This document shows, piece after piece, positions 3,215-55,567 of a DNA stretch of 64,000 nt. Source of the DNA: an uncultured Acidobacteriota bacterium (GTDB lineage Bacteria; Acidobacteriota; Thermoanaerobaculia; Multivoradales; UBA5704); assembly GCA_963700145.1 (NCBI GenBank), contig OY969474.1:2816001-2880000 (forward strand), written 5' to 3'. Within the stretch, counting starts at the first letter, position 1, and each line of letters begins with the position of its first letter. A program made the translations under genes and the position numbers. The notes beneath the pieces were generated by a model. The model was given only the letters and a program-made list of their open reading frames with translations, did not search any database and was not told where the DNA came from.

Positions 3215-4447
3215 TTAGGAAGAACAATGATGCTTCGCGGCGACCGCCTCCACGTGTGGCGCCCAAGGAGTGACCTTTGCCCCATCCAAGCGGCGGAACT
3301 CGTAAACCTGCCGGCAGGCTGACGGCACATTGCCAAGCTGATCGTAAGCTTGAATCAGCAGCCAGAACGTCTCGATCCGGCCAAGATCTCCAAGAACATA
3401 ACGGTTGCGCGCCTCCTCTAGGTGCGGGATTGCCGCCTGCGGTTGCCCAGCCCGCAGCTCCAATTCTCCATAGAGCCGATGCAACGCAGGCCGATCTGGG
3501 TCCAGGCGCAAGCCAGTAGAAAGGGCTGCCCTCGCCCTACTCAGCATGTTGAGGGCGAGAGCCGCATGCGCCAACTCGCCATAGGCGTCGACCCGCTCGG
3601 GTTCACGCACGCTAGCCTGCAGGAGAAACGGATACGCATCGGCGAACCTTTCCCTGCCGTTGAGGTAATGTCCAAGGTTGAACAGGTGCTCTGCCGAGTC
3701 CGGCCGCTGTTTCACCGCCGCTCGGTAGTGATCCTCGGCAGCCCGGACATCCCCAAGCCTCTCCTCGGTCGCTGCGAGATTAGAAAGAATCTCCGCCTTT
3801 CCGGGCGCGAGCTTCAGGGCGTCGCGAAATTGTTTCCGGGCCTCGGACCATTGTCCATGCTCGAAGAACGCCACGCCTTGTGTGACCAGCCGCTCCTTCC
3901 ACCAGTTGCAGCCCGCTATCCCCATAATTGTAGCCAGCAGGAGGCTCAGCAAGGCTGCGGTCGGCCAACCGGCCCAGTGTTCGCTGCGCTTGATGAACGG
4001 CCCCGGCAGCAACTCGCCACCTTCCCCGGGGCCGGGCACTTTGCCTCGTATGCCAGCAAGGAGCCTTCGGAAGGCCTCTTCATCGTCGATGCCGGCGCGG
4101 AAGTCAACCCAGGCCAGGAGGCGGAGGAAACGGGGAACCTCACCTTTAGTGGTCCAACCGGGCAGCAGCACTGGGATCACCCGGATCGATTGGTCGCGGA
4201 CCCGTTCGGCTAGCGCCGAACGCATCTCTTGATTCTGCCAGGGCCCGAGCTCCTTGCCGAGAAAGACAGCGCAGGTGCGACTCTCGTCGAGTGCTTCCTC
4301 CAGCGCCTCCTCCCAAGGGTCTCCGGGAATAAGGTGCCATTTGTCGAGGAACGGCTCAAGTTTTTCCTCCCGAAGCTTGCGAGCAATGTGCTCAATGGCT
4401 GGCTTATCGGCGTTGGCATGGCTGAGAAAAACGTCGTAGCGGGGCAT
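3215..4447 (-). CDS. TIR domain - transmembrane helix - TPR protein
   Basis: YDVFLSHANADK...FLDKWHLIPGDPW...WQNQEMRSAL...VIPVLLPG is a TIR_2 signature with the catalytic-position Glu; TM segment AALLSLLLATIMGIAG; several TPRs follow. Confidence 0.9.
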   Translation of the reverse strand: MPRYDVFLSHANADKPAIEHIARKLREEKLEPFLDKWHLIPGDPWEEALEEALDESRTCAVFLGKELGPWQNQEMRSALAERVRDQSIRVIPVLLPGWTTKGEVPRFLRLLAWVDFRAGIDDEEAFRRLLAGIRGKVPGPGEGGELLPGPFIKRSEHWAGWPTAALLSLLLATIMGIAGCNWWKERLVTQGVAFFEHGQWSEARKQFRDALKLAPGKAEILSNLAATEERLGDVRAAEDHYRAAVKQRPDSAEHLFNLGHYLNGRERFADAYPFLLQASVREPERVDAYGELAHAALALNMLSRARAALSTGLRLDPDRPALHRLYGELELRAGQPQAAIPHLEEARNRYVLGDLGRIETFWLLIQAYDQLGNVPSACRQVYEFRRLDGAKVTPWAPHVEAVAAKHHCSS

Positions 4448-6983: not shown

Positions 6984-7661
6984 TCACCTCTCGTTCGCGC
7001 CGGGCGGCTGGACCAGGATCTTCGCGGCGGCGCGCCAGCCGAGGCTCACGTCCCGGCCGTCGGCGAGGCGGAGATGCACGGTCTCTGCCGTCTCGTCGCG
7101 GGACTCGACGCTCAGGACGCTCCCCGGCACCAGGCCGCTGCGCTCGACCAGGCGCAGGAACTCGGCGCTCTGGTCCCCCACCCGCGCCACCCGGACGGGC
7201 TCCCCGAGCGGGCAGAGCAGCAGGCTCGGCAGGTCGCGCTCGTGGACCAGGCCGGTGGGGCCGGGGATGGGGTCGCCGTGGGGATCCACGGCGGGGTGGC
7301 CGAGCAGCTCGTCGATGCGCTCGATGACCCGCTCGGAGACGGCGTGCTCGAGCTGCTCGGCCTCGCCGTGCACCTCGCTCCAGTCGAGCCCGACGACCTG
7401 CACCAGGAAGAGCTCGATCAGCCGGTGGCGGCGCAGCACGTGGGTGGCGAGCTCGCGGCCGGCGGAGGTGAGCCGCACGCCGCTGTAGGGCTCGTAGCTC
7501 ACCAGGCCGCTGTCGGCCAGGGCCTTGACCATCGCCGTCACCGTGCCGGGGGTGACGCCGAGGCTGGCCGCGATCTGCCCCATCGGCACCAGCGCGCCGG
7601 GCTGCCGGTGCTCCTCGAGCAGGATGCGCTTGAGGTAGTCCTCGACCGTGCTGGTGGGCAC
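6984..7661 (-). CDS. DtxR/MntR/TroR-family metal-dependent regulator with FeoA domain
   Basis: TVEDYLKRI, HTH, RRHRLIELFL, EAEQLEHAVS, PAVDPHGDPIP, SH3-like C-terminus. Confidence 0.93.
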   Translation of the reverse strand: MPTSTVEDYLKRILLEEHRQPGALVPMGQIAASLGVTPGTVTAMVKALADSGLVSYEPYSGVRLTSAGRELATHVLRRHRLIELFLVQVVGLDWSEVHGEAEQLEHAVSERVIERIDELLGHPAVDPHGDPIPGPTGLVHERDLPSLLLCPLGEPVRVARVGDQSAEFLRLVERSGLVPGSVLSVESRDETAETVHLRLADGRDVSLGWRAAAKILVQPPGANER

Positions 7662-24076: not shown

Positions 24077-27000
24077 ATGCTCGACGCCGTCATCCGCTTT
24101 TCGCTCCGCTACCGCGGCCTGATCCTGCTCGCGACCGGGCTCCTTCTGATCATCGGCTCGCTCTACGTCGTCCGCCTGCCGCTCGACATCTTCCCCGACG
24201 TCAGCGCCCCCACCGTCACCGTCGTCGCCGAGGCCCGCGGCATGGCGCCGGAGGAGGTGGAGCTGCTGGTGACCTTCCCGATCGAGTCGGTGCTCAACGG
24301 CGCCCCCGGCGTGCGCCGGGTGCGGTCGGTGTCGGCCGCCGGCATCGCGGTCGTCTGGGTGGAGTTCGGCTGGGGCGAGGACGTCTACCGCGCCCGCCAG
24401 GTGGTCTCCGAGCGCCTGCAGGGGGCGCAGCTGCCGGCGAGCGTCGATCCGCCGCAGCTCGGCCCGATCAGCTCGGTCATGGGCGAGATCACCTTCATCG
24501 CCATCACCGCGAAGACGATCTCGCCGATGGAGCTGCGCCTGCTCGCCGAGAGGGTGGTGCGGCGGACGCTGCTGTCGGTTCCGGGGATCTCGCAGGTCGT
24601 GCCGATCGGCGGCGACGTGCGCGAGTACCAGGTCGAGGCCGACCCCGTCGCCCTCGCCCAGCGCGGGATCACCGTCGACGACCTCACCGACGCCCTGGAG
24701 CGGTCGAGCCGCAGCGCCGCGGCCGGCTTCCACGTCGACCGCGGGCAGGAGTATCTCGTGCGCGGCCTCGGGCGCGCCCGCGGCGCCGCGGACCTGGCGG
24801 CGACCGTGCTGCGGGTCGACGGCGGCGTGCCGGTCAGGGTGGGGGACGTGGCCGCCGTGCGCGAGGGGGCCGAGGCCAAGCGCGGGACCGCTTCCTACAA
24901 GACCCGGCCGGCGGTCATCCTCTCCGTCCAGAAGCAGCCGGACGCCAACACCCTCTCGCTCACCCGCGAGATCGACCGCCTCCTCGCCGGCCTCGCCCGC
25001 TCGCTCCCGCCGGGAGTGACCATCGAGACCGAGAACTTCCGCCAGGCCGACTTCATCGAGGTGGCGATCGCCAACGTCGTGGCGGCGCTACGCGACGGCG
25101 CCCTCCTGGTCGTCGTAGTGCTCTTCCTCTTCCTCGGCAACCTGCGGACGACGCTGATCACGGCGCTTGCCATCCCGCTCTCGCTGGTCGCCGGCGTGCT
25201 CGTCATCTCGCTCTTCGGCCAGGGCCTCAACACGATGACGCTGGGCGGCTTGACGATCGCCATCGGCGCCCTGGTCGACGACGCGATCATCAACGTCGAG
25301 AACGTCTTCCGCCGCCTCAAGCAGGAGCGGACGCGCCCCGAGGCCGACCGGCGCCCGCCCTTCGAGACGGTCTTCCGTGCCTCCTCCGAGGTGCGGGGAC
25401 CGATCCTCTTCGCGACGCTGATCATCGTCCTGGTCTTCCTGCCGCTCTTCGTGCTCCCCGGCATGGAGGGGCGGCTGCTGCGCCCGCTCGGCTTCGCCTA
25501 CGTCGCGGCGCTCGCCGCCTCGCTCGTCGTCTCGCTCACCGTGACGCCGGTCCTCTGCTATCTCCTGCTGCCGCGCTCGAAGGTCCTCGACCGGCCCGAG
25601 CCCTGGCTGCTGCGGGCCTTCCACCGCGCCTACCGGCCCGCCCTCGCGTGGTCGCTGGCGAACCGCGGCAAGGTCGTCGCGACGACCGTCCTGGCCACGG
25701 CCGCGGCCGGCGCCGTCCTCTTCTTCGTCGGCCGCAGCTTCCTGCCGCCGTTCAACGAAGGGGCCCTCACCATCTCCGTCGTCAGCCCGCCCGGCATCAC
25801 CCTGGAGGAGAGCGACGCGCTCGGGCGGCAGGTCGAGGCGAGCCTCCTCGCCTTTCCCGAGGTCGTCTCGACCAGCCGGCGCACCGGCAGGGCCGAGAAG
25901 GACGAGCACGTTCAGGGGGTCAACGCCTCCGAGATGGAGGTGGTGCTGCGCGAGGGGCGCGAGAAGGACGAGCTGCTCGCCGAGATGCGCCAGGCGGTGT
26001 CCACGATCCCCGGCGCCCAGGTGACGTTCGGACAGCCGATCAGCCACCGCATCGACCACATGATCTCCGGCAGCAAGACCAACCTGGCGGTCAAGATCTT
26101 CGGCCCCGACCTGGCGGTCCTGCGCGGCCTGGCGGCACGGGCGCAGTCGCTCCTCTCCGGGGTCCCGGGGTTGGTGGACGTCTCCAACACCGAGCAGGCC
26201 AGCGTGCCGCAGCTCGTCGTCGACTTCGACCGCCGCGCCCTGCCGCTCCACGGCCTCACGCCGGCCGGCCTCTCGCGCTCGGTCGAGGCGCTCTTCCAGG
26301 GCACCGAGGCCGGCGAGATCGTCGAGGGGGGCGTCGTCTCGCGCGTCGTCGTCCGCCTGCCCGAGCGCCTGCGCGCCGCGCGCGAGGAGCTCGCCGCGCT
26401 GCCGGTGCCGACCCCGTCCGGCCACACCGTGCCGCTGGGCGAGGTGGCGCGCGTGCGCTTCGACTTGGGGCCCGGCCTGGTGCGGCGGGAGAACGTCGAG
26501 CGCGTGGCGATGGTCACGGCCAACATCGCCGGCGCCGACCTCACCGGGACGGTCGAGCGGGTCCGCCGCCGGCTGGACGCCGGGCTCGAGCTGCCGGCCG
26601 GCTACCGCATCGCCTACGGCGGGCAGTTCGAGGAGGCGGCGCGCAGCCTGCGTAACCTGACGACGCTGTCGGGGCTGGTGCTGCTCGGCATGTACGCCAT
26701 CCTCTTCTTCGCCTTCCGCAACCACCGCCACGCGCTGATCGTGCTCGTCAACCTGCCGCTGGCGCTGGTCGGCGGCGTCTTCGCGGTCGCCTTGGGCGGC
26801 GGCGTCCTGTCGGTCGCCTCGCTGGTCGGCTTCATCACCCTCTTCGGCATCGCCACGCGCAACGGCGTGCTGCTCGTCTCGCACTACCAGCACCTGATGG
26901 CCGAGGAGGGGCTGGGGCTCCAGGAGGCGGTGGTCCAGGGCTCGCGCGAGCGGCTCGCGCCGGTGCTGATGACGGCGCTGACCGCCGGGCTCGCCCTGAT

Positions 27001-27166
27001 CCCCCTGGTCCTCGCCGGCGGCAAGCCCGGCAACGAGATCCAGAGCCCGATGGCGCAGGTGATCCTGGGGGGCCTGCTGACCTCGACCTTCCTCAACCTC
27101 GTCCTCGTGCCGGTGCTCTTCGCGCGCTGGGGAGGGGTTCGGGCGCCGGTGGGCGAGCGGGCGTGA
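24077..27166 (+). CDS. Heavy-metal efflux RND permease (CzcA/CusA family)
   Basis: 1029 aa; PLDIFPD, GALVDDAIINVEN, FLPPFNEG, RLAPVLMTA. Confidence 0.95.
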   Translation: MLDAVIRFSLRYRGLILLATGLLLIIGSLYVVRLPLDIFPDVSAPTVTVVAEARGMAPEEVELLVTFPIESVLNGAPGVRRVRSVSAAGIAVVWVEFGWGEDVYRARQVVSERLQGAQLPASVDPPQLGPISSVMGEITFIAITAKTISPMELRLLAERVVRRTLLSVPGISQVVPIGGDVREYQVEADPVALAQRGITVDDLTDALERSSRSAAAGFHVDRGQEYLVRGLGRARGAADLAATVLRVDGGVPVRVGDVAAVREGAEAKRGTASYKTRPAVILSVQKQPDANTLSLTREIDRLLAGLARSLPPGVTIETENFRQADFIEVAIANVVAALRDGALLVVVVLFLFLGNLRTTLITALAIPLSLVAGVLVISLFGQGLNTMTLGGLTIAIGALVDDAIINVENVFRRLKQERTRPEADRRPPFETVFRASSEVRGPILFATLIIVLVFLPLFVLPGMEGRLLRPLGFAYVAALAASLVVSLTVTPVLCYLLLPRSKVLDRPEPWLLRAFHRAYRPALAWSLANRGKVVATTVLATAAAGAVLFFVGRSFLPPFNEGALTISVVSPPGITLEESDALGRQVEASLLAFPEVVSTSRRTGRAEKDEHVQGVNASEMEVVLREGREKDELLAEMRQAVSTIPGAQVTFGQPISHRIDHMISGSKTNLAVKIFGPDLAVLRGLAARAQSLLSGVPGLVDVSNTEQASVPQLVVDFDRRALPLHGLTPAGLSRSVEALFQGTEAGEIVEGGVVSRVVVRLPERLRAAREELAALPVPTPSGHTVPLGEVARVRFDLGPGLVRRENVERVAMVTANIAGADLTGTVERVRRRLDAGLELPAGYRIAYGGQFEEAARSLRNLTTLSGLVLLGMYAILFFAFRNHRHALIVLVNLPLALVGGVFAVALGGGVLSVASLVGFITLFGIATRNGVLLVSHYQHLMAEEGLGLQEAVVQGSRERLAPVLMTALTAGLALIPLVLAGGKPGNEIQSPMAQVILGGLLTSTFLNLVLVPVLFARWGGVRAPVGERA

Positions 27167-27435: not shown

Positions 27436-27780
27436 ATGTTCTACCGCTCTCGCCGAATCGTGCTGACCCTCGCCCTGGCTCTGTTCGCCGTCCTTCCGGT
27501 CCTGGCGGGCGGTGAAAACGGCCAGCCCACCACCACCGCGGCCGCCGCGGCCGTCGAGCACGTGACGGTCGTGTCGGGCACTTTCAACGTCGGCATGGGG
27601 GACACGTTCGACGCGGCGAAGGGGATGACGCTGCCGACAGGCACCTTCGCCTTCCTGGCGCCCGGCATGCACCACTACGCCTGGGCGAGCGGCGACACCG
27701 TCATCCAGCTCCACGGCGTCGGACCCTGGCAGATCAACTACGTGAACCCGGCCGACGACCCACGGAAGAAGACCCAGTAG
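27436..27780 (+). CDS. Exported cupin (DUF4437-like), apparently shortened
   Basis: EHVTVVSGTF...GMHHYAW...IQLHGVGPWQINYVNPADDPR; first cupin His motif is not visible. Confidence 0.65.
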   Translation: MFYRSRRIVLTLALALFAVLPVLAGGENGQPTTTAAAAAVEHVTVVSGTFNVGMGDTFDAAKGMTLPTGTFAFLAPGMHHYAWASGDTVIQLHGVGPWQINYVNPADDPRKKTQ

Positions 27781-27785
27781 CACTG

Positions 27786-28892
27786 ATGCTCCGGGCTCCC
27801 CTCCTCGCCGCGCTCCTCGGCCTGGCCGCCGCCGCGCCGGGGTGGGCGTTCGCCGACGACGCTGGCGCCGTCCTCTGGCACTTCGACACCGGCGGCTGAC
27901 TCTTCACCGCCCCCGCGGTCGCGGAGGACCTCCTCTACACCGGCGCCTGCCCCGGCAACTTCTACGCTCTCGAGCGCGCCACTGGGCGGGTGCGCTGGCA
28001 GTTCGACACCGCGCGCGGCGGCGGCCCCAAGGCGCTCTTCCACGGGCACCCGGTGGTCGCGGGCAACCTGGTCATCACTCCGTCCGACGGCCGGCCGATC
28101 TCGTCCGTCTACGCCTTCGACCGCGCCACCGGAGCGCTGCGCTGGGAGTGGCCGGCCGAGGGCGGGGTGGAGGCCGACCTCGTGCTAGCCGGCGGCCGCG
28201 TGCTCGCCCTCACCGGCACCGCCGAGCTTGCGGCGCTCGACGCGCGGACCGGCAAGGAGCTGTGGCGACTGGCCCCGGACGGCCCGCAGCCGCGGCAGGA
28301 GCTCCACAAGAGCGCGCCGGCGGCCGGGGAGGGCCGGGTGTTCTTCGAGAGCGCCGTCGGCCGCCTCTACGCCGCCGACCTCGGCACCGGCAGGGTGCTC
28401 TGGCAGCGCGACTTCGGACTCGACGTCACGACCTCGCTCCTGCTCACCAAGCGAGGCTTGTTGATCGGCCTCGCCGACGGGCGAATCGTCCGGCTCGACC
28501 CGAAGACCGGTGACGTCGAGACCGCCCTGGCGGTGGACGGCGTGCCGCGCGGCCCGCTGGTGCTCGCCGAGGGCGTTCTCCTCGTCCTGCTCGACAGGGA
28601 AGGGACGCTGCTGGCGGTGGAGGAATCGCTCGCCAAGACCCTCTGGCGGCGCGAGCAGGTGGGCAAGTGGAGCGCACCGCGGCCGACCGTGCGGGGCGAC
28701 AGCGTGCTGATGGGCACCGCGCAGGGGGAGCTCCAAGCCTACGCGCTACGCGACGGCGCGCCGCGCTGGCGTTCTGCCTTCGAGGGCGTGCTGCGCGGGA
28801 TCGGCGTCGCCGGCGACGCGCTCTACGTCGGCACCGAGGGCGGCCGCCTGTACGCCTACCGGCCCGATGCTGGCTCGCCTCGCTCTCGCTAG
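27786..28892 (+). CDS. Exported PQQ-like (BamB-like) beta-propeller with in-frame UGA at codon 38, candidate selenoprotein
   Basis: ATG 27786, signal peptide, LWHFDTGG-TGA(27897)-LFTAPAV...GACPG...RWQFDT in frame with the 27990 ORF; CCGC-GGTC-GCGG hairpin at 27913-27924. Confidence 0.75.
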
Positions 28893-29177: not shown

Positions 29178-30923
29178 ATGACTCGATCTTCGGATCCATT
29201 CCCGACAGACGCCGCCGGTCTGCCCGAGGCGCGCCCCTCCGAGCCGGTCGACCTCGGCGACGGGGACCAGTTCGACCTTCGCATCGCGCCGGTGGCGAAG
29301 CAACTCGGCGGCGCGACCGTGCGGATGCTGGCCTACAACGGCTCGATTCCCGGCCCGACGCTGCGAGTGCGGCAGGGGTCGAGGCTCGTGGTCGACGTCG
29401 CCAACGAGGGCGACCTCGAAGCGACGGTGCACTGGCACGGGCTGCGCCTGGAGAACCGCTACGACGGGACGGCCGAGACGCAACCGCCGATCCCCATCGG
29501 CGGCAGCTTCACCTACGAGATCGAGTTCCCGGACCCGGGCGTCTACTGGTACCACCCGCACATCCGCGAGGACTACGGCCAGGAGATGGGCCTGTACGGC
29601 AACATCGTGGTCGTGCCGGCTGAGCCGGACTACTGGCCGCCGGTCCACCGCGAGCTCACCCTCACTCTCGACGACATCCTGCTGGAGGACGGCACGGTCG
29701 CCCCGTTCGACCGGTCGCACCCCACGTACACGGCGATGGGCCGGTTCGGCAACGTGCTGCTGGTCAACGGCGAGCCCGAGCTGGCGCTCGCGGCGCGGCA
29801 GGGCGAGGTCCTGCGGCTCTACCTGACCGACACCGCGAACACGCGGGTCTTCAACGTCGCCGTGCGCGGCGCGCGCATGAAGCGCGTCGGCGGCGACAGC
29901 GGGCACTACGAGCGGGAGGAGCTGGTCGAGAGCGTGGTGCTCGCGCCCTCGGAGCGGACCGTGGTCGACGTCCTGTTCGACCGGCCCGGCCAGGCGACCC
30001 TCGAGCACCGCACGCCCGGCCGGACGTACACGCTGGCCACGATCGCCGTGAGCGACGAGCAGGCGGAGCCGTCGCTGGCGCCGCGCTTCGCGGACCTCCG
30101 CACCAACCCCGACCTGGCGGCCGAGCGCCAGCGGATCGCGCCCTATCTCGAGGCCGCGCCGGACAAGACGCTCGCCCTGGTCGCCGAAATGGACATGGGC
30201 GCGCCGGAGCTGCCGGCGGGCGCGGCGGTCGAGTACTACTGCCCCATGCACGCGGAGGTGGTCAGCGCCGAGCCGGGCCGGTGTCCGAAGTGCCACATGA
30301 AGCTGCTCCCCCGCGAGGCCGCGGCACCGGCATACGCGTGCCCGATGCATCCCGAGGTGCGGAGCGCCGAGCCCGATCGCTGCCCCAAGTGCGGCATGAA
30401 GCTGGTGCCGGCGCAGCTCGTGCCCGAGCCCGGGCACGGCGAGCACCAGCACGGGCCTTCCCACGGCGATGACGGCGGGCACCCGCACGAGCACGACGGG
30501 GACCAGGCGCCCGAGCACCTCGGCATCGAGTGGGAGGACGACATGGTCGAGGTAAACCGCATGACCACCCCGGCCAACATGCGCTGGAAGCTGATCGACC
30601 GGGCGACGGGCGCCGAGGGCGCGGCGATCGACTGGCGGTTCCGCGTCGGCGAGCGGGTGAAGATCCGGCTGGTCAACGAGATGGACTCGGATCACCCGAT
30701 GCACCATCCCTTCCACCTCCACGGGGCGGGGCGTTTCCTGGTCCTCGCCCGCGACGGAGCCCTCGAGCCCAACCTCGTCTGGAAGGACACGGTCCTGGTG
30801 CGCACCGGCCAGACGGTGGACATCCTCCTCGAGGTCACCAACCCCGGCGTGTGGATGGCGCACTGCCACATCGCCGAGCACCACGAGAGCGGGATGATGT
30901 TCTGCTTCCTCGTCGAGCCGTAG
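29178..30923 (+). CDS. Three-domain multicopper oxidase with two inserted CPMH heavy-metal-binding domains
   Basis: HWHG, YHPH, HPFHLHG, HCHIAEHHESGM; YYCPMH...CPKCHM and YACPMH...CPKCGM; His-rich linker; no signal peptide visible. Confidence 0.92.
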   Translation: MTRSSDPFPTDAAGLPEARPSEPVDLGDGDQFDLRIAPVAKQLGGATVRMLAYNGSIPGPTLRVRQGSRLVVDVANEGDLEATVHWHGLRLENRYDGTAETQPPIPIGGSFTYEIEFPDPGVYWYHPHIREDYGQEMGLYGNIVVVPAEPDYWPPVHRELTLTLDDILLEDGTVAPFDRSHPTYTAMGRFGNVLLVNGEPELALAARQGEVLRLYLTDTANTRVFNVAVRGARMKRVGGDSGHYEREELVESVVLAPSERTVVDVLFDRPGQATLEHRTPGRTYTLATIAVSDEQAEPSLAPRFADLRTNPDLAAERQRIAPYLEAAPDKTLALVAEMDMGAPELPAGAAVEYYCPMHAEVVSAEPGRCPKCHMKLLPREAAAPAYACPMHPEVRSAEPDRCPKCGMKLVPAQLVPEPGHGEHQHGPSHGDDGGHPHEHDGDQAPEHLGIEWEDDMVEVNRMTTPANMRWKLIDRATGAEGAAIDWRFRVGERVKIRLVNEMDSDHPMHHPFHLHGAGRFLVLARDGALEPNLVWKDTVLVRTGQTVDILLEVTNPGVWMAHCHIAEHHESGMMFCFLVEP

Positions 30924-33534: not shown

Positions 33535-34400
33535 GCGCGCGAGTGCGCACGACGCTCGCCGCGGCGCTCGGTCTCGCGCTCGCCGCCTCCCCGCTCGCCG
33601 CCGCCGGACACGGCCCGGTGTACGGGCTCGCCACGCCGACGCTCGGGCAGGGGCTGTGGAGCCTGGACGTCGCCGCCATGGGGCGCTCGGGGGGCGCGGG
33701 CGAGATGGCGATGGTGCGGCCGATGCTCGGCTACGGCTTGACCGAGGACCTCCAGGTCTCCGTCTCGCTGCCGCTGTCGCTCGACGACGACCCGGGGGTG
33801 CCGCCGGCGCGGATGATGGCGATGATGCCGGGGGTCCGCGACGCCGAGCTCCTCCTCGGCTGGCGCTTCCACCGCCGGGCGCTCGGCGTCGGCGCGCGCT
33901 TCGAGTCGACCGCCTACCTCGGCCTCGAGGTCCCGACCGACGACGTCCGCGCCGGCGTGCGCACCGCGCCGGGGATCCTCGGCGGCCTTGCCACCGGCTA
34001 CGCCTCGCGCAGCCACTACGCCTGGGGCGGCGCCCAGGTCCAGCGCGCGGCGAGCGCGCGCGGCGGCGACCGCACCGGCGACATGGCGATCTGGAGCCTG
34101 GTCTACGGCTACCGGCCGCAGCGCTTCCGCGAGGAGCTCCCACACGCCGACTGGCGCTGGTTCGTCGAGCTGGTGGGCGAATACCGCGGGCGCGACGAGA
34201 TCGCCGGCCGCGCGCTGGCCGACACCGGCGGCCACGAGGTCTTCCTCGGCCCGACGGTGCTCGGGCTCTTCGGGCCCTGGGGCGTCTCCGGCGGCCCGCT
34301 CTTCCCCGTCCACAGCGACCTCCACGGCGACCAGCCGGAGGAGGACGTCCGCTTCGTCGTCAACTTCAGCTACTGGTTCGTACCGAGGAGCACGCCATGA
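33531..34400 (+). CDS. Outer membrane beta-barrel-like protein
   Basis: Signal peptide; mature N-terminal GHGP; Met-rich loop; amphipathic strands; FVVNFSYWF near the C-terminus. Confidence 0.65.
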   Translation: MSARVRTTLAAALGLALAASPLAAAGHGPVYGLATPTLGQGLWSLDVAAMGRSGGAGEMAMVRPMLGYGLTEDLQVSVSLPLSLDDDPGVPPARMMAMMPGVRDAELLLGWRFHRRALGVGARFESTAYLGLEVPTDDVRAGVRTAPGILGGLATGYASRSHYAWGGAQVQRAASARGGDRTGDMAIWSLVYGYRPQRFREELPHADWRWFVELVGEYRGRDEIAGRALADTGGHEVFLGPTVLGLFGPWGVSGGPLFPVHSDLHGDQPEEDVRFVVNFSYWFVPRSTP

Positions 34401-34909
34401 AACGACTCGTTCTGCTCTCGCTCCTGCTCACCTTGCTCGCCCCCGCCGCCGCGGCGCGCGCCGAGCTGCTGCGCATGCAGCAGGTCCTCTTCGGCATGGA
34501 CTGAGCGGTCTGCGCCCACGCCGTGCGCGTGGCGATGCAGAAGATCAAAGGCGTGGAGAAAGTCGAGGTCTCGCTCAACCGCGGCGTCGTCGACCTCACC
34601 TTCCGCCCCGGCAACACCGCGACGGTCGAAGCGGTGCGGCAGGTGGCGATCGACGGCGGCTTCGCGCCCAAGGACGCCGAGGTGCGGATCGCCGGCACGA
34701 TCGTCCACCGCGGCCAGCCCGGGCTCGCGGTCAAGGGCCTCGACGTCGTCTACCTGCTCGTCGACCACCCGAGCGCCAAGGGCCTCGCCAAGCGCCTGCA
34801 CGGCGAGCACGCCGGGAAGGACGTGGTGCTGCGCGGCGTGGTTCCGGAAACCCGGAAGGCAGGGGAGCCGCGCGTGCTGCAGGTCCAGGAACTGGTGCGG
34901 CGCGATTAG
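34397..34909 (+). CDS. Exported HMA/MerP-like protein with UxxC motif (candidate selenoprotein)
   Basis: GAGGAG RBS; signal peptide; FGMD-TGA(34502)-AVCAHAVRVAMQKIKGVEKVEVSL is the HMA GMxCxxC motif with UGA at the first Cys; hairpin immediately 3'. Confidence 0.85.
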
Positions 34910-40174: not shown

Positions 40175-40582
40175 CTAGCAGCGCGCCCGCACGGCGCTGG
40201 CGAAGGCGAGGAGGTCGTCGAGGCGGTTGATGACGACCGACTCGACGATCCCGAGGTTCAGCGAGTCGTAGTCGTGGACCAGGACGTTGCGGAAGCTGGC
40301 CATCTCCTGAAGCGCCGCGGCCAGCTCGGGGGCGAGCCAGCCGGCGCGGCGCAGGAGATCGAAGAGGTCGCGGTTCGCGCCGGGCTCGCCCAGGCGCTCG
40401 TCGGAGACGACGTGCGAGGCGACGTCGAGCGCCGCTTCGATCGCCAGATGCAGGGTGCGAGTCACGAACCGCTCTTCGCGGACGTCCTCGTGCAGGCGGT
40501 CCAGCCGCGACATGGTGCGCAGCTCGCGCACGTACGTCTCGACCGCAGCCAGCTTCTTGAAGACCAGGTCGCGGTCGGTCAT
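40175..40582 (-). CDS. hepT: HepT/DUF86 HEPN ribonuclease toxin
   Basis: FRNVLVHDY Rx4H motif with the adjacent Tyr. Confidence 0.88.
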   Translation of the reverse strand: MTDRDLVFKKLAAVETYVRELRTMSRLDRLHEDVREERFVTRTLHLAIEAALDVASHVVSDERLGEPGANRDLFDLLRRAGWLAPELAAALQEMASFRNVLVHDYDSLNLGIVESVVINRLDDLLAFASAVRARC

Positions 40583-40989
40583 CCCTCGGCGGGCATGCGG
40601 CGGTAGCGGCGCAGGATGGGCTGGAGGTCGAAGAACTCGCGGCGGGCCTTGACCTCGAAGGCGATGCGGCGCGAGGGGTTGCGGTCGAGGAGCAGGCGGC
40701 CGTCCCGCAGCACGCGGTGGATCAGGTCGACCGGGGCGCGGTCGAGGACCGTCACTTGGATCGGGACACCTAGGCGGCGTTCCAGCTCGCCCTGGAGGCG
40801 CAGGTAGAGGCCCGCGAGGCCCGGCGGCGGCCCGGCCGCCGTGAGCACCGCGACGTCGACATCGCTCGCAGCACCTGCCTCGCCGCGCGCCACGCTGCCG
40901 AAGAGGTAGGCCGTGACGATCCCCTCCGCCGCCGCGGGCGAGGCGGCGAAGAAGTCACACAGGCGGCGCTCGATCGTCGCGGCGTCCAC
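40579..40989 (-). CDS. mntA: MntA minimal nucleotidyltransferase antitoxin
   Basis: YLFGSVARG...SDVDVAV; TATACT -10 box 6 nt upstream of the GTG. Confidence 0.88.
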   Translation of the reverse strand: MDAATIERRLCDFFAASPAAAEGIVTAYLFGSVARGEAGAASDVDVAVLTAAGPPPGLAGLYLRLQGELERRLGVPIQVTVLDRAPVDLIHRVLRDGRLLLDRNPSRRIAFEVKARREFFDLQPILRRYRRMPAEG

Positions 40990-49784: not shown

Positions 49785-50561
49785 ATGAGGAGCCTAGCTG
49801 ATTTGGCAGCAGATCTCCTTGTTGATGTCGGCCGGACGAAAAAACCTCGTGCTTACGGCTTCACAATAACACTTGATAAGGGTATACCGCAGGCCGACAT
49901 TCGGCAGCTAGCAGAGGTTGCCGGTCCTTGGTGGGATTTTGCCAAGCTGGCATGGGGGAGCATTCTGATAACGCGCGACATTGAAAAGCGTCTTGCCACC
50001 TATGATGAAGTGCTCGTCACTCCAATTCTCGGCGGTACGCTATTCGAATATGCGTGGCTCCATGGCCGCATGAACGAGATGCTTGCTCTCGCACGAGCCG
50101 CCCAAGTCCATATTGAGATCTCGGATGGGGTTGTCGCTTTGCCCCGGGCAGAGAAGCTCCGTGCGATTGAGCGATTTGCTGAATATGTACCGGTTTTCTC
50201 TGAGATTGGTAACAAGGCGGTGCCTATTGTCGCCGACTGGCCGACCCTCGTGAAGGAGGAGTTAGATGCAGGTGCGAAGCACGTCGTAATCGAAGATAGA
50301 GAACTAGGGCCTGAAGGCAGGGAGATCCGCGGTGATCTCGTTGAAACGCTCCTCGACTCTATACCGATGAATCGTCTTGTTTTCGAGGCGATTGAGCGAA
50401 AGCAGCAAACCTGGCTGATACGGCATCTCGGATCGAATGTCAATTTGGGCAATACGCTACCTATGGACCTGATGACAGTCGAGTGCATCAGACAAGGCTT
50501 GAATCACGACACCGTTGATCCGCGATGCTGGAACGTATACAAGCATCGGCCTAGTAAGTAG
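49785..50561 (+). CDS. ComA (phosphosulfolactate synthase)/HSA32-family protein
   Basis: LDKG, DFAKLAWGS, GGTLFE, EISDG, SEIGNK, FEA...QQ, NVNLGN; low-GC codon usage. Confidence 0.8.
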   Translation: MRSLADLAADLLVDVGRTKKPRAYGFTITLDKGIPQADIRQLAEVAGPWWDFAKLAWGSILITRDIEKRLATYDEVLVTPILGGTLFEYAWLHGRMNEMLALARAAQVHIEISDGVVALPRAEKLRAIERFAEYVPVFSEIGNKAVPIVADWPTLVKEELDAGAKHVVIEDRELGPEGREIRGDLVETLLDSIPMNRLVFEAIERKQQTWLIRHLGSNVNLGNTLPMDLMTVECIRQGLNHDTVDPRCWNVYKHRPSK

Positions 50562-50579
50562 CTACGCACCGAGTGCGCG

Positions 50580-52739
50580 CTATTCATCACGCCTTCGTCG
50601 GCGTAGCTCCTCTGCTTGGGTGGCATGAAACGAGATGCGACTCCCCGCGATGCCGGAGGCGAGAAGCGCCAAGAGCGACTTAGGATATTTGTCGAAGGCC
50701 GCCGACCATAGCGGCCCTTCGACATCCTGCGCGAACCTTCCCGCTATATCCAAGAGCTCTTGTGTAAGATAGTTCCCGGTAGGCGATCGTAGCGTCTGGA
50801 ACAACTGCGCGACGACTTCGCGAAGATCATCATAATGTCGTTCCTGCCGACGGCCATAGCGACTGCTGTTCCAGCCATCAGGGTCGAACCAATCCTGATC
50901 GACAAACTCACTCAATCCGTGACCTGAGAGTGCTTCCGCTGTTCGCTCGAAAAAGGACTGCCAGGCTGACGCAGCGGCTCTCGCCGCACAGGGGTGATCG
51001 CTACCTTCCCAAGCGCAAGTGGCGGCGAAAGCACCGTACTGGCAAAATTGAAGGTCGTAAATAAATAGGAAGTCCAGTCTCTTGCCTGCGCCGGCCCGGC
51101 TTTCAGTTCCAGGGACATCCAACAGGTCGCTAACGCCTCCGCCAGCGATAATGGACCCCACCGACCGCCCCTCGATGTGGACTGACGCGGTCTGAGCGCT
51201 CAAGGACGGCGGAAGATAGCGCCCGTACTCGACGGCGGCGATGAGATGAGCGTAACGGAAGGAGTCCACAGCCAATGAGACCTGCTTCACGACGCCAGGA
51301 ATTCGAGAACGCAGCGGCGGGATATAGGACTCCCAGCTGTGATGCACTCCTGCGTGTACCCAAGGATATCCGAGCCCGTAGCCGCGGAAGTCTCCTCCCT
51401 CTTTGTTTGGGAAGCGGATGCGCGCCCTCGCGTCCCAAAGGCGCAGACCTATCGTGGGTAGAGTGCCTGCCGCGACGTCTTCTTTGACAAGGTAGCTGAT
51501 GACCGCCGGTGGAAGCAATGAGATAGCCGCTAATACTGGCTGCTCGTGACGTTCCGCGAGCGCCACGAGACTGCGCCATGCCGACAAAGGAGGCCTCTCC
51601 TGCCAGAGCGTGCTTGCAAGCGCCGAGATGACTGCGGGGGTCTCGACCTTAAGAGAACTGAGTTCAAGTGCGGATGTCAGTCGGACTGATAAGTCGGGAT
51701 CGTGAAGGCCGACACCTAGCCAAGTAATCTTGCTTCGGGCGCCGCCGCGAGCACGGGTTAGCTCTCTATAGGCGGCGCTTCTTACTGACGCGTCAGGGTC
51801 TCCAAGGCTGCGTTGCAGAAGCGGTAGCCCCGTGGCATCGCGATGAGCGATATAGCCGATTGCCTCCACGGCGCTCTTCCGCACCTCCGGTCGAGAATCG
51901 CGCGCGCAGAGCTCCAGCGCCCCGCGGGCACGCTTGTAACGGACAGGAAGACCGTGGCGCGCTACAAGATTCGCGGTATGCTGCCTTACACGAGCGTCAG
52001 GATCCCAGAGTCCAACTACGAGGGCGCGCAGGGTTTTTCGATCGAGGTGTTCCTGTGCCGCTAGTAACCGAAGCGCATAGCTGCGAACCGCGGCATTGGT
52101 CGCCTTAGTCGCATAAGGAGGTAGAAGCGCCTGCAGCAGGTCCCGATCAATCGTTTCTTTCAAGACCCGGTCTGCATGCCAGCGTACCCAGTGATCGTCG
52201 TCGGCCGAGGCTCGCACGAGTGCTTCAGCCCTCTCGTCTGATGGCATTGAAGTGGCGGCGAGTGCCTCAGCTGCGCGCCAGCGAACGGAGCGACAGGGAT
52301 CAGACTGTAGTACTCCCGCGAGAGCCGGAAGGGTGTACGGGGGAGGGCCAATTTTCCTAAGGGCTTCAACGGCACGCCATCGCACAGAGGCGAGTTTGTC
52401 TCCAGTCATGGCCGACAGGAGTGCGGGTATAGCAGCATCAGCTTCGCGCCCCAGGCTCAGAATGGCGCTTGCGGCCCGCAGGCGATCCATTGCCCCGGCT
52501 GAGCCCAGCAGCGCAGCAAATCCAGCGACCGATTCTCCCACCGGTAGGCCGGGGGGCACACGAGGCTCCTCCGGCGGCGCCGCGAAATGCCATCTCTTTA
52601 GGAATCGCGGCGGCAAGACCAGGCGGACACGGTCACCCTCCACAGTGGCCACAGCCCCCAGCTGACGGGGACGTCGGAGGCCCTCAAACCAGTTTGGCGT
52701 CGCTACCCGAAGGGTCATACCACTAGGCTCAGTCCCCAT
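50580..52739 (-). CDS. HEAT-repeat protein with unknown C-terminal domain
   Basis: Repeated D...VRW.A.EAL / DPDARVR / DPDASVR units; start codon uncertain (52775, 52739 or 52718). Confidence 0.8.
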   Translation of the reverse strand: MGTEPSGMTLRVATPNWFEGLRRPRQLGAVATVEGDRVRLVLPPRFLKRWHFAAPPEEPRVPPGLPVGESVAGFAALLGSAGAMDRLRAASAILSLGREADAAIPALLSAMTGDKLASVRWRAVEALRKIGPPPYTLPALAGVLQSDPCRSVRWRAAEALAATSMPSDERAEALVRASADDDHWVRWHADRVLKETIDRDLLQALLPPYATKATNAAVRSYALRLLAAQEHLDRKTLRALVVGLWDPDARVRQHTANLVARHGLPVRYKRARGALELCARDSRPEVRKSAVEAIGYIAHRDATGLPLLQRSLGDPDASVRSAAYRELTRARGGARSKITWLGVGLHDPDLSVRLTSALELSSLKVETPAVISALASTLWQERPPLSAWRSLVALAERHEQPVLAAISLLPPAVISYLVKEDVAAGTLPTIGLRLWDARARIRFPNKEGGDFRGYGLGYPWVHAGVHHSWESYIPPLRSRIPGVVKQVSLAVDSFRYAHLIAAVEYGRYLPPSLSAQTASVHIEGRSVGSIIAGGGVSDLLDVPGTESRAGAGKRLDFLFIYDLQFCQYGAFAATCAWEGSDHPCAARAAASAWQSFFERTAEALSGHGLSEFVDQDWFDPDGWNSSRYGRRQERHYDDLREVVAQLFQTLRSPTGNYLTQELLDIAGRFAQDVEGPLWSAAFDKYPKSLLALLASGIAGSRISFHATQAEELRRRRRDE

Positions 52740-54108
52740 CCTGGATCTCAACAAGCATGTCGCTACGCCAGCCATGCTTCTGGGTCGATCTGAAGATTGG
52801 AGACGACCTCAAATATTCGTCCGGGCGGAGCGCGCGCGGAATGAAAGCGACATCCGACTCCCTGATATGGCTGCCACGCACCGCTGTAATTTTGTGAACG
52901 AGATGGCGCACTCTCCGCATTTCCACTCCAGGAGAGATCCGCCAGAAGGTGCGAAGTACACCGAGGCTGATGTGCGTCACATGAGGGAATCGTTGGTGCA
53001 ACAACGTGACTGCCACATACACGCGTTCAAGGCGCTCAAGCTGCTCGTCAGCCTCACGGCCGCCAACCGCTGCGAGTGTCAGTTCACCATCCGTCAACCT
53101 CGACTTGAAATCATCAAATTTACTTCCCTGCGCGGGCTGCTTTCCACTTCCGGCAAAAACCCAAACACAAGGCCTAAGGTAAACTGCATTACCTTCACGG
53201 ACATACATGCTCGCTTCCAGGGGAAGAAGAAACTGCCCATACCAATTACCCCCGTCATCATCAATCTCGTCCACGAAAACGAGAAGTGGTCGAGGGGAGT
53301 TAGCTTGATCTGTCGCGAGCGCGTCGAGGCGAGTAATAAGGTCTGCTCGCTGGGCCATCTGGCTAAGGTCAATCTTCCGCCAATCAGCGTTGAGACTCGT
53401 TGCAATTCCCTCGATCAAGGCAGATTTGCCTGAGCCTGGCTTGTCAACAAGCAGACAACTTATACTCCTCTCGGGAGCGGATTGTCTGTTGATAAAGCTG
53501 TCGACGAGTCGATACAAATAAGAGGCGGCGTCGCGCCGTTGCTTCGTGAGGGCTATGTAGTTGCGCGCAGCTGACAGCCCTCGCCAGGACTGGAACACAG
53601 GGCGACTGTCATTATTCTCCGTAATGATCGTTATGATGCCGAGGCCCGTTCGGCTCTCAGTCCATTCTCGCTCGCATTGCTTCCATTCGGCTGGTCGGAT
53701 TGTATAAGAAGCTGATTCCTTGACGTCTTCATCTTCGCGCAGGTCTGGCCCGTAGCTCACTTCGGACGGCTGATTAGGCCCGCTCAATCGCCGCTCCTCG
53801 TTGCATCGCCACTTGTACGCCTTTCGAGCGGCTTGGCAGAGTGTATGATCGAACCTCGACCTCGGGCTAGGGAAAAGGGTTCTAGCTACAAGGCTAGCAA
53901 AAAATACGCTTGCCTTACCAACTCGCCCGCTCATTGCCGCGAGCTCTTCAGAGCCACTACTGACGTGAATGTGGCCCTTCGCTGGCCCACTTTCGGAAGC
54001 ACACAGAGAGAGCCCGCTCGGCATCGCGACGATCGCGCCGAGTTGTCCCAGAACTGGCTTATGAGCGGCACGTACAGCGGAGAGGTACTGGTATGCCTCC
54101 AGTGAAAT

Positions 54109-55567
54109 GGGGTTGTCCCTCCCGCTGTTGAAAGAGCAATGAGGTGAAGGCGGCTCCTCGGCCCACCTGATCGAGAATCGGGTTGGTCGAATAACCGGCC
54201 CCGCCAGGGGGCCAAGGAGCCGTGATGAAGACGAGAGCAGAAAGGCGGGTGGTGTGGCAAGGGGGCCGTGCGGCGCGCATCAGCCACGGGCTACAAGCGC
54301 TGCTGCGGCCGATGGTCGAGGGCATCGAGGCCAGCCGCCAGGGGCTGCTGGAGCTGTTTCACGCCGCGGGCGTCGAGGCCCTGGGGCGGCAGCTCGCGGA
54401 CGAGGTCGAGGCCGTCGTCGGTCCGAAGCGTCGGCGCAATCCGACCCGCGAGGCGTACCGCTGGGGCTCGACGGCGAGCGAGTTCGTGCTGGGTGGCCGC
54501 CAGGTGGCGCTGCCGCGACCGCGCGTCCGGCGACGCGACGGTGGCGAGATGAGCTTGCCTTCGGTGCGCGCCTTTCAGGACGAAGATCCCTTCACGGAGC
54601 GGGTGATCGAGCAGGCGCTGGTCGGCGTCTCGCAGCGCCGCTACGGTCGGAGCTTGGAGCCGCTCGCAGAGTCGGTGCCGGAGCGCGCGACGAGCAAGAG
54701 TGCGGTCCAGCGCCGGCTGGTGGCGGGGACGCGTCGTCTGCTGGGCGCGTGGCTGCGCCGAGACCTGTCGGACTTCCAGCCCCTGATCCTGATGATCGAC
54801 GGGCTGGAGGTGGCCGGCCACACCCTGGTGGTGGCACTCGGCATCGCGCGCGACGGGACCAAGCGGGTGCTCGGCCTGCGTGAAGGCGCGACGGAGAACG
54901 CGGCGCTCTGTACCGGCCTGCTCCAGGAGCTGTTGGAGCGAGGCCTCGCGATGCCGCCGCGCTTCTTGGCGGTGCTCGACGGCGGCAAGGGGCTGCGCAA
55001 GGCCGTGCGCGCCGTCTTCGGGGACGCAACCCACGTCCAGCGCTGCCAGCTCCACAAGCGCCGCAACGTCCGCGACCACCTGCCCAAGCAGCTCCAAGCC
55101 CGGGTCGACCGCCTGATGGTCGAGGCCTACCAGAGCGCTCGCTTCGACCTCGCCAAGCGTCGCCTCGAGCAGCTTGCCCGCTGGCTCGAGCACGCAGGCC
55201 ACGCGGGCGCCGCGGGCAGCCTGCGCGAGGGCCTCGACGAGACCCTCACCGCCTTGCGGCTGAAGCTGCCCGACGCTCTGCGCCGGTTGCTCGCCTCGAC
55301 CAACGCGATCGAGAACACGATCGGCTCGATCCGTACGACGACGCGCAACGTCAAGCGCTGGCGCGGCGGCGACATGGTGCTGCGCTGGGTCGCCCTGGCG
55401 CTGTGTGACGCGGAGGCTGGCTTCCGGCGTGTCAAGGGACATCGGCACCTCGGGGCTCTCGAGCTCGCGCTCGCGGCGATCGAGGAACCGACGAACACCA
55501 AGGCCGTGGCATGATCAACCGAGCCGCTTTCCCTCTTTCGGCTTTCAACAGGGAACGGGGCATCCCC
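54109..55567 (+). mobile_element. Complete IS256-family insertion sequence (1459 bp)
   Basis: Imperfect TIRs GGGGTTGTCCCTCCCGCTGTTGAAAG / CTTTCAACAGGGAACGGGGCATCCCC; 8-bp TSD AGTGAAAT at 54101-54108 and 55568-55575. Confidence 0.95.
54222..55514 (+). CDS. IS256-family (mutator-type) transposase
   Basis: LMIDG, VLDGGKGL, QRCQLHKRRN, STNAIE DDE motifs. Confidence 0.95.
   Translation: MMKTRAERRVVWQGGRAARISHGLQALLRPMVEGIEASRQGLLELFHAAGVEALGRQLADEVEAVVGPKRRRNPTREAYRWGSTASEFVLGGRQVALPRPRVRRRDGGEMSLPSVRAFQDEDPFTERVIEQALVGVSQRRYGRSLEPLAESVPERATSKSAVQRRLVAGTRRLLGAWLRRDLSDFQPLILMIDGLEVAGHTLVVALGIARDGTKRVLGLREGATENAALCTGLLQELLERGLAMPPRFLAVLDGGKGLRKAVRAVFGDATHVQRCQLHKRRNVRDHLPKQLQARVDRLMVEAYQSARFDLAKRRLEQLARWLEHAGHAGAAGSLREGLDETLTALRLKLPDALRRLLASTNAIENTIGSIRTTTRNVKRWRGGDMVLRWVALALCDAEAGFRRVKGHRHLGALELALAAIEEPTNTKAVA

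Follow-up and report, generated by a model that had tools for sequence, protein, structure and literature searches.

A lipoprotein signal peptide with a lipobox cysteine is a defining feature of BamB, with which the protein described here shares an eight-bladed propeller fold of the pyrroloquinoline quinone (PQQ)-like type (Foldseek template modelling (TM) score 0.77–0.82; Pfam PQQ_2). For the insertion of selenocysteine (Sec) the comparison used here is the fdhF gene of Escherichia coli, in whose Sec insertion sequence (SECIS) the bases G23 and U24 contact SelB. Here we describe a propeller gene with an in-frame TGA, located at 27786–28892 on the plus strand of a stretch of 64,000 nucleotides from an uncultured Acidobacteriota bacterium (contig OY969474.1; hereafter the window). 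Table 1 of a review of May 2026 contains 119 families and subfamilies of prokaryotic selenoproteins, and no PQQ-like or BamB-like propeller is among them (PMC13188914). Since the catalogue holds no propeller, we treat this one as representing a new family of selenoproteins, one in which Sec is inserted by the known bacterial mechanism, and the proposal of a candidate new family made in the first-pass annotation of this DNA stands.

We consider it probable that codon 38 of this gene, the in-frame TGA, encodes Sec. In this reading 27786–28892 would be an intact selenoprotein gene in which the ribosome reads UGA codon 38 as Sec, aided by a short GGUC-loop hairpin 17 bases downstream, and the product would be an exported, soluble, eight-bladed PQQ-like (BamB-fold) propeller belonging to a large family found mostly in Acidobacteriota-like and Gemmatimonadota-like soil bacteria. 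A broader proposal, towards which we lean with less assurance, is that this large family of exported propellers, spread over Acidobacteriota, Gemmatimonadota and other soil lineages and hidden by shortened gene calls, is almost exclusively a Sec family, and that a Sec/Cys/His/Asp site on one face of its propellers would act as a periplasmic redox or Cu(I) centre.

A single in-frame TGA in an otherwise intact gene

Translated with TGA as U, the propeller gene is one frame of 368 codons, with a sole internal TGA at codon 38 (27897–27899) and the terminator TAG (28890–28892). The 37 codons upstream of the TGA encode a hydrophobic, signal-peptide-like stretch followed by LWHFDTGG, and downstream of it the protein reads LFTAPAVAEDLLYTGACPG before running into the PQQ_2 propeller (Pfam E 9e-42). 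Residues 1–21 (27786–27848), ending in APGWA, are predicted from the sequence to form the signal peptide, with a putative cleavage site at this end; it contains no lipobox Cys, and the number of Cys residues in positions 1–37 is zero. The only Cys of the protein, and the proposed partner of Sec38, is Cys55 (TGC, 27948–27950), which lies 17 residues past the TGA. Codon bias is strong on either side of the TGA, and the gene is otherwise intact.

The continuity of the signal peptide and LWHFDTGG-TGA with the propeller, which the first-pass annotation had pointed out, was thus recovered in this frame, and so was its remark that gene callers lose the N-terminus. Specifically, the longest open reading frame (ORF) under translation table 11 is one of 300 aa starting from the GTG at 27990, and the protein-database entry for this gene (P0002) is the same 300-aa shortened form.

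The TGA column across the family

Proteins of the family were gathered by a profile search of 1.84 billion representatives and by a word-based search that started from one of the Cys forms. All counts refer to aligned single-domain family matches, which amount to 140 database proteins (at least 140 clusters); left out of them are about 95 of the 150 proteins that the profile search listed, these being long multi-propeller proteins, as well as P0271 (generic, 697 aa), P0344 (generic, without Cys or His at the family columns), P0345 and, from the word-based search, P0348–P0370. The 48 N-terminal residues of P0345 are unaligned and seemingly belong to a different frame, a sign of a probable frameshift in its contig.

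The gene calls of the family begin past the TGA column almost without exception: 137 of the 140 proteins start at or past the codon that follows it, 32 of them exactly there, and not one starts before the column without spanning it. The three proteins that do span it (P0247, P0273 and P0274; 379–392 aa, each with a signal peptide) all have Cys at this position. Of 102 family proteins reaching over the partner column, that of Cys55, 101 have Cys there, the sole exception being P0340 with Arg. The closest database relatives (82–87% identity) are 299–300 aa long and have the same late Val/Met start as the ORF in the window, the five closest homologues all being called from the start used by that 300-aa ORF, while remoter relatives (36–43% identity) begin with M/V-F-x-T-P-x-V-x-G, that is, with the codon straight after the TGA column. 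For the table-11 ORF the protein atlas gave only generic names and a pointer to Acidobacteriota; the three nearest clusters hold 58–89 members, with shortened lengths of 327–343 aa.

At the DNA level, a contig scan from which 80 loci were kept yielded one true family member, L001, located on a 3.7-kb contig of a Gemmatimonadota metagenome-assembled genome (MAG); the other loci were generic PQQ propellers, such as L002, which has Ser at the TGA column. A tblastn search of plasmids likewise returned generic propellers only (21 records, 25–35% identity). The L001 protein is 35–37% identical to the propeller from the window, and its gene has a TGA (1286–1288) at the identical column. The order of its parts is also the same, with an ATG, a signal peptide, ERLWSRDTEG and the TGA, followed by IFVTPAVAGDTVYVGSCSG, and with a GSC motif on the downstream side of the TGA; the terminator of this gene is itself a TGA. 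L001 and the three relatives of the Cys form have hydrophobic N-termini similar to that of the propeller gene. Because the in-frame TGA is conserved across the family it is well beyond chance, and since the identical column is TGA in a 35–37% identical homologue from another phylum, it is no lone nonsense mutation.

In a FastTree phylogeny of 134 rows (rows shorter than 280 aa omitted, SH-like support only), the three Cys forms made up a single clade (support 100) nested within the family. This clade would most simply be explained by one change from Sec to Cys, and to judge from the alignment the column is most likely UGA in almost every member of the family, with Cys in a small derived clade.

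A candidate SECIS downstream of the TGA

A candidate bacterial SECIS (bSECIS) hairpin occupies 27911–27927 (plus strand), with its GGUC loop at 27917–27920 and 17 bases between the TGA and the loop. The core CCGC-GGUC-GCGG lies at 27913–27924, and the first base of its loop is the 18th past the TGA; the loop at +18 and the lone Cys 17 residues downstream given in the first-pass annotation are both where it had put them. If bases are numbered from the U of UGA, the pairs are C15–G31 and C16–G30, then, beyond a bulged A29, C17–G28 to C20–G25, and the loop is G21 G22 U23 C24. The core stem of 4 bp has an energy of −6.5 kcal/mol, which becomes −9.3 kcal/mol with the bulged A and the two added pairs.

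In L001 the hairpin has the same GGUC loop at the same bases, a stem of 7 bp and an energy of −16.0 kcal/mol, and is the dominant fold (probability 0.997). The limits set out in the legend of Fig. 2 of PMC13188914 are a loop of 3–9 nt, a stem of at least 4 bp, a G in the first two loop bases, a spacing of 16–37 nt and an energy of at most −7.5 kcal/mol; compared with this legend, the L001 hairpin is clearly within all of them, and the window hairpin is within them in geometry, and in energy only via the bulge. The longest run of identical nucleotides between the two genes (15 nt, against an overall identity of 52.7%) falls on the hairpin. There, 4 of 4 fourfold-degenerate codons are identical, as opposed to 26 of 61 elsewhere (p ~0.03, a rough estimate), an identity that is partly due to the conserved P-A-V-A peptide.

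As had been stated at the outset, the hairpin of E. coli K-12 fdhF carries a GGUC apical loop at nearly the same distance, at bases 22–25 compared with 21–24 in the window, where it is one base closer. The window stem, unlike that of fdhF, is short, having 4 bp plus 2 bp beyond the bulge, and in isolation it is outcompeted by other folds. Folding z-scores did not discriminate: those of the candidates ranged from −0.2 to −1.5, and the genuine fdhF element scored −1.40, the fdhF element together with the candidate giving likewise modest values between −1.3 and −1.5. The hairpin is strong in L001 and marginal in the genome studied here, which is weaker than the first-pass annotation had it, and its recognition by the host SelB is putative.

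A second gene with TGA in place of Cys

Scanning the window for TGA triplets with coding signal on both sides gave three cases (24053, 27897 and 34502), of which the first marks an ordinary junction between genes. The one at 34502 belongs to a second candidate selenoprotein gene, at 34397–34909 on the plus strand and 5.5 kb downstream of the propeller gene, which encodes a secreted protein with a heavy-metal-associated (HMA) domain (Pfam HMA, 31.3 bits against a cut-off of 24.8). Its TGA (34502–34504) is read in the context GMD-U-AVC and replaces the first Cys of the HMA motif GMxCxxC, a position on which it also falls in alignments to the solved domains of ATP7B, MerP and CopZ. The best NCBIfam match, under its cut-off, is the model of UxxU metal-binding (seleno)proteins. 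The hairpin downstream of this TGA (34509–34541) is the minimum-energy fold, with −18.7 kcal/mol, a 17-base spacer and a loop at bases 21–25, and it shares with the propeller hairpin a loop geometry that places G22 and U23 at the same positions. About 100 residues on the C-terminal side of the HMA domain have no family match.

Since two independent genes with TGA in place of Cys and with matching hairpins occur in one metal-resistance island, the organism likely decodes Sec. The serine hydroxymethyltransferase encoded in the window shares 84–90% identity with proteins that carry the label Thermoanaerobaculia (a class within Acidobacteriota), and Table 2 of PMC12013277 places at least one species of this phylum among the Sec users; Sec-type hydrogenases have also been reported from Acidobacteriota in PMC13582414. 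Table S1 of BSepDB, considered as a list of Sec users, was rejected as uninformative for the lineage, being a list of all the genomes analysed.

A BamB-like fold with a putative Sec/Cys site

The AlphaFold2 model, for which 58 sequences were aligned and U was replaced by C, is an eight-bladed BamB-like propeller (mean pLDDT 91.7, pTM 0.88), with pLDDT values below 50 at residues 1–16 and means of 84 at residues 21–30 and 96 at residues 31–40. Residues 27–34, upstream of the TGA, are modelled as a confident strand built into the propeller, one that, to judge by the order of the strands, would close the last blade. Foldseek matched the model to BamB (at about 20% identity), to designed propellers of eight blades and to tetrathionate hydrolase.

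Two further residues are almost invariant in the family: His86 (28041–28043), in an FHG motif, is His in 133 of 134 proteins and is a possible member of an active or metal site, and Asp101 (28086–28088) is Asp in 137 of 137. In the model, His86 lies in the loop ahead of strand 90–92 and Asp101 follows strand 95–99; along with Sec/Cys38 and Cys55 they occupy loops of blades 1 and 2 that precede strand A or follow strand B, and under standard propeller topology we infer that all four would share one face. Sec38 and Cys55, with His86 and Asp101, could then form either a redox centre based on a selenenylsulfide or a site for a soft metal of the Cu(I) type. Whether the Sec/Cys pair is a functional redox or metal site of this sort is a question on which we are evenly divided. 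Some members of the family carry additional C-terminal domains, namely a TlpA/Redoxin-like domain with a CPFC motif (P0251), DUF6265 (P0181 and P0225), a ChaN-like haem-binding domain (P0189 and P0202) and a SnoaL-like domain (P0237).

Alternative readings of the TGA

Several observations weigh against the interpretation given above, in whole or in part. None of selA, selB, selD or the tRNA for Sec was found within the 64-kb window (40 ORFs scanned; no tRNAs), and an Rfam scan of 27700–28100 with E values of up to 10 gave no match. The window hairpin is outside the minimum-energy fold (pair probability ~0.01), and in isolation it is outcompeted by two other small hairpins (−12.5 kcal/mol). Moreover, ungapped bSECIS-like hairpins were found at 342 of 1500 random positions (~23%) and at 59 of the 260 TGA triplets of the window, whose DNA is 73% GC and in which such hairpins are common; on its own, the window hairpin is not above chance. 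As for the family, the TGA was read in DNA for two genes only, both in one 21-row subclade, and the direct evidence therefore does not bracket the whole family, the stop codon of the other 137 proteins being deduced from the starts chosen by gene callers. Finally, the copper context of the propeller gene was seen in the window only, L001 having as its neighbours the genes of a cytochrome c-TPR protein and an M61 peptidase.

The alternative that best withstands the evidence, although an unlikely one, is that the UGA is read through as an ordinary residue, either by a near-cognate tRNA (Trp, Cys or Arg) or by leaky termination at UGA-C. It would agree with the weak hairpin, the lack of an Rfam match and the lack of Sec machinery within the window, but not with the residue found in those family members that have no stop, which in 3 of 3 cases is Cys, the sulphur analogue of Sec. 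Nor would it account for a hairpin with an fdhF-like loop being kept in L001, or for a second gene in the window having a TGA for a metal-binding Cys and a strong hairpin of the same geometry, and leakiness would be an inefficient means of making a protein retained in more than 100 lineages.

We regard as very unlikely the idea that the TGA is a true stop throughout the family, separating a short upstream peptide from a propeller with its own initiation (a split gene or leader peptide). The 32 of 137 shortened database proteins that begin with a start-type codon directly past the column can be cited for this arrangement. In the window, however, the TGA is followed by CTC, and no in-frame start occurs before the GTG at codon 69, a late position from which the five closest homologues were called too; a product begun there would have lost Cys55 and most of blade 1. 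Any product begun past the TGA would be without the signal peptide, yet the Cys forms have one, and also without the putative closing strand, a strand upstream of the TGA that the AlphaFold2 model uses in the fold.

A pseudogene or sequencing error, arising from a single change of TGG, TGC or CGA to TGA, was a natural suspicion as long as a single in-frame stop in GC-rich DNA was known from one genome; it is now highly improbable, because in the one homologous locus with DNA and in the three proteins that span it the column holds TGA or Cys, not Trp or assorted residues (the generic L002 aside). The same-column TGA is present in an unrelated MAG of another phylum (L001), the pattern of starts extends to 137 of 140 proteins, and the gene has its codon bias on both sides and is intact in other respects. 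The Sec insertion favoured in the first-pass annotation, for which the residue at this column in homologues had been named as a check, is supported by the TGA of L001 and by Cys in 3 of 3 spanning proteins. A genetic code with UGA as a sense codon, for which nothing speaks beyond the open frame, deserves next to no credence, since TGA ends 17 of the 43 ORFs of the window with high GC at third codon positions (including Pfam-supported genes, such as those of the RND pump, the DtxR regulator, a multicopper oxidase and a Ser/Thr kinase), as the same annotation had maintained for the genome, and also ends the L001 gene, and since in-frame TGAs with flanking coding signal number only three, one of them the gene junction mentioned above.

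A copper-resistance neighbourhood

The Sec-encoding propeller gene favoured here lies in a large metal (copper) resistance island at 6987–32167, which includes a DtxR-type regulator, two multicopper oxidases, a cupredoxin, a P-type ATPase (YHS and HMBD), a DUF305 protein, a resistance-nodulation-division (RND) pump, a beta-helix protein and two outer-membrane efflux proteins. Immediately upstream, on the same strand, are the gene of the RND efflux pump of CusA/CzcA type (24077–27166, ending in TGA; Pfam ACR_tran E 9e-264) and that of a small secreted protein (114 aa, 27436–27780) matching no family of Pfam or NCBIfam, whose stop is 5 bases before the ATG of the propeller gene and which is probably co-translated with it in an operon. 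Downstream, also on the plus strand, is the gene of a multicopper oxidase with two HMBD motifs (29178–30923; Pfam Cu-oxidase_3, Cu-oxidase_2 and HMBD).

With this arrangement in mind, we propose that the propeller may act periplasmically and belong to an operon for copper resistance composed of the RND pump, the small secreted protein, the propeller and the multicopper oxidase, a periplasmic Sec/Cys centre having perhaps been recruited to copper defence in this genome. That copper itself is the substrate of the propeller is a tentative suggestion, and a rather doubtful one.

Other features of the window were recorded along with the island. Between 18000 and 24000 the GC content rises to 78% and long ORFs occur on both strands in several frames; ORFs alone do not fix the gene limits there, including those of the membrane-fusion protein upstream of the RND pump. 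On the minus strand, 3218–4447 encodes an N-terminal TIR domain followed by TPR repeats, adjoins two more TPR proteins and has a lower GC content (~64%), and 40178–40954 encodes a HepT-like ribonuclease domain (HepT/MNT-type toxin) in its C-terminal half. The GC content drops to 58% at 50–54 kb, next to a Mutator-family transposase gene at 54195–55511, which suggests that 50000–55511 is an inserted mobile segment.

Implications

If the broader family proposal is true, the use of selenium in aerobic soil bacteria and in metal resistance would be wider than current catalogues indicate, and the annotations of family members as ~300–330-aa "BamB" or "serine/threonine kinase" fragments would all be wrong. 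Selenoproteins are systematically mis-annotated, and new families alter the reading of the microbial selenium economy. In this case the fold would be one previously unlisted among the 119 catalogued families, with Sec in nearly all the members of the family and not in a minority of them. The position of the propeller gene beside the genes of a copper pump and a multicopper oxidase, and near a second, metal-binding gene with Sec for Cys, would, in addition, make a link between selenium and periplasmic copper testable.

Relation to described proteins

Full-text literature searches found no paper tying Sec to a PQQ-like or BamB-like propeller. None of the words PQQ, propeller and quinoprotein occurs in the main text of PMC13188914, PMC13326102 (BSepDB) or PMC12013277 (deep-Sep), or in the supplements of the latter two, in the case of PMC13326102 as regards part of the supplement. 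BamB occurs in PMC13188914 as a surname in the reference list only, and of five matches to "bamb" in the BSepDB supplement the two that were inspected are species epithets in the Species column. Likewise, NCBIfam release 20 has no model specific to the propeller family, every match being under its cut-off.

Despite the common fold, the propeller differs from BamB in several respects. Sequence identity is about 20%, and the scores of 157.1 bits against TIGR03300 (cut-off 285.2) and 94.7 against NF008351 (cut-off 423) fall short; its signal peptide is without the lipoprotein Cys, and its gene is in a metal-resistance operon and not beside BAM genes. We therefore rejected an identification as BamB, since the protein is under the equivalog cut-offs and has no lipobox Cys. 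Also rejected was a PQQ-dependent dehydrogenase (quinoprotein), given a score of 70 bits against 480 for TIGR03075 and a length of 368 residues where the model has 530. The set formed by Sec/Cys, His and Asp is peculiar to the propeller family and absent from its generic relative L002.

A different kind of precedent is tetrathionate hydrolase of Acidithiobacillus ferrooxidans, a cofactor-less enzyme with an eight-bladed propeller (TM 0.75–0.77), which illustrates that this fold is able to act enzymatically on chalcogen compounds without PQQ. It is larger than the propeller and 16–18% identical to it, and Sec is not mentioned in the titles of the matches.

A parallel in terms of Sec usage and gene context is provided by the HMA-type selenoproteins (UxxU, NF041115, and the UxxC cation-transporting ATPase) and the other metal-resistance selenoproteins of PMC13188914, Table 1, in which, as proposed for the propeller, Sec replaces one member of a pair of Cys residues. 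These proteins also have their genes in heavy-metal resistance loci, as the propeller does. In contrast to the propeller, with its two residues 17 apart on a beta-propeller, these metal-resistance selenoproteins have Sec/Cys residues 2–3 apart on a ferredoxin-like or thioredoxin-like fold.

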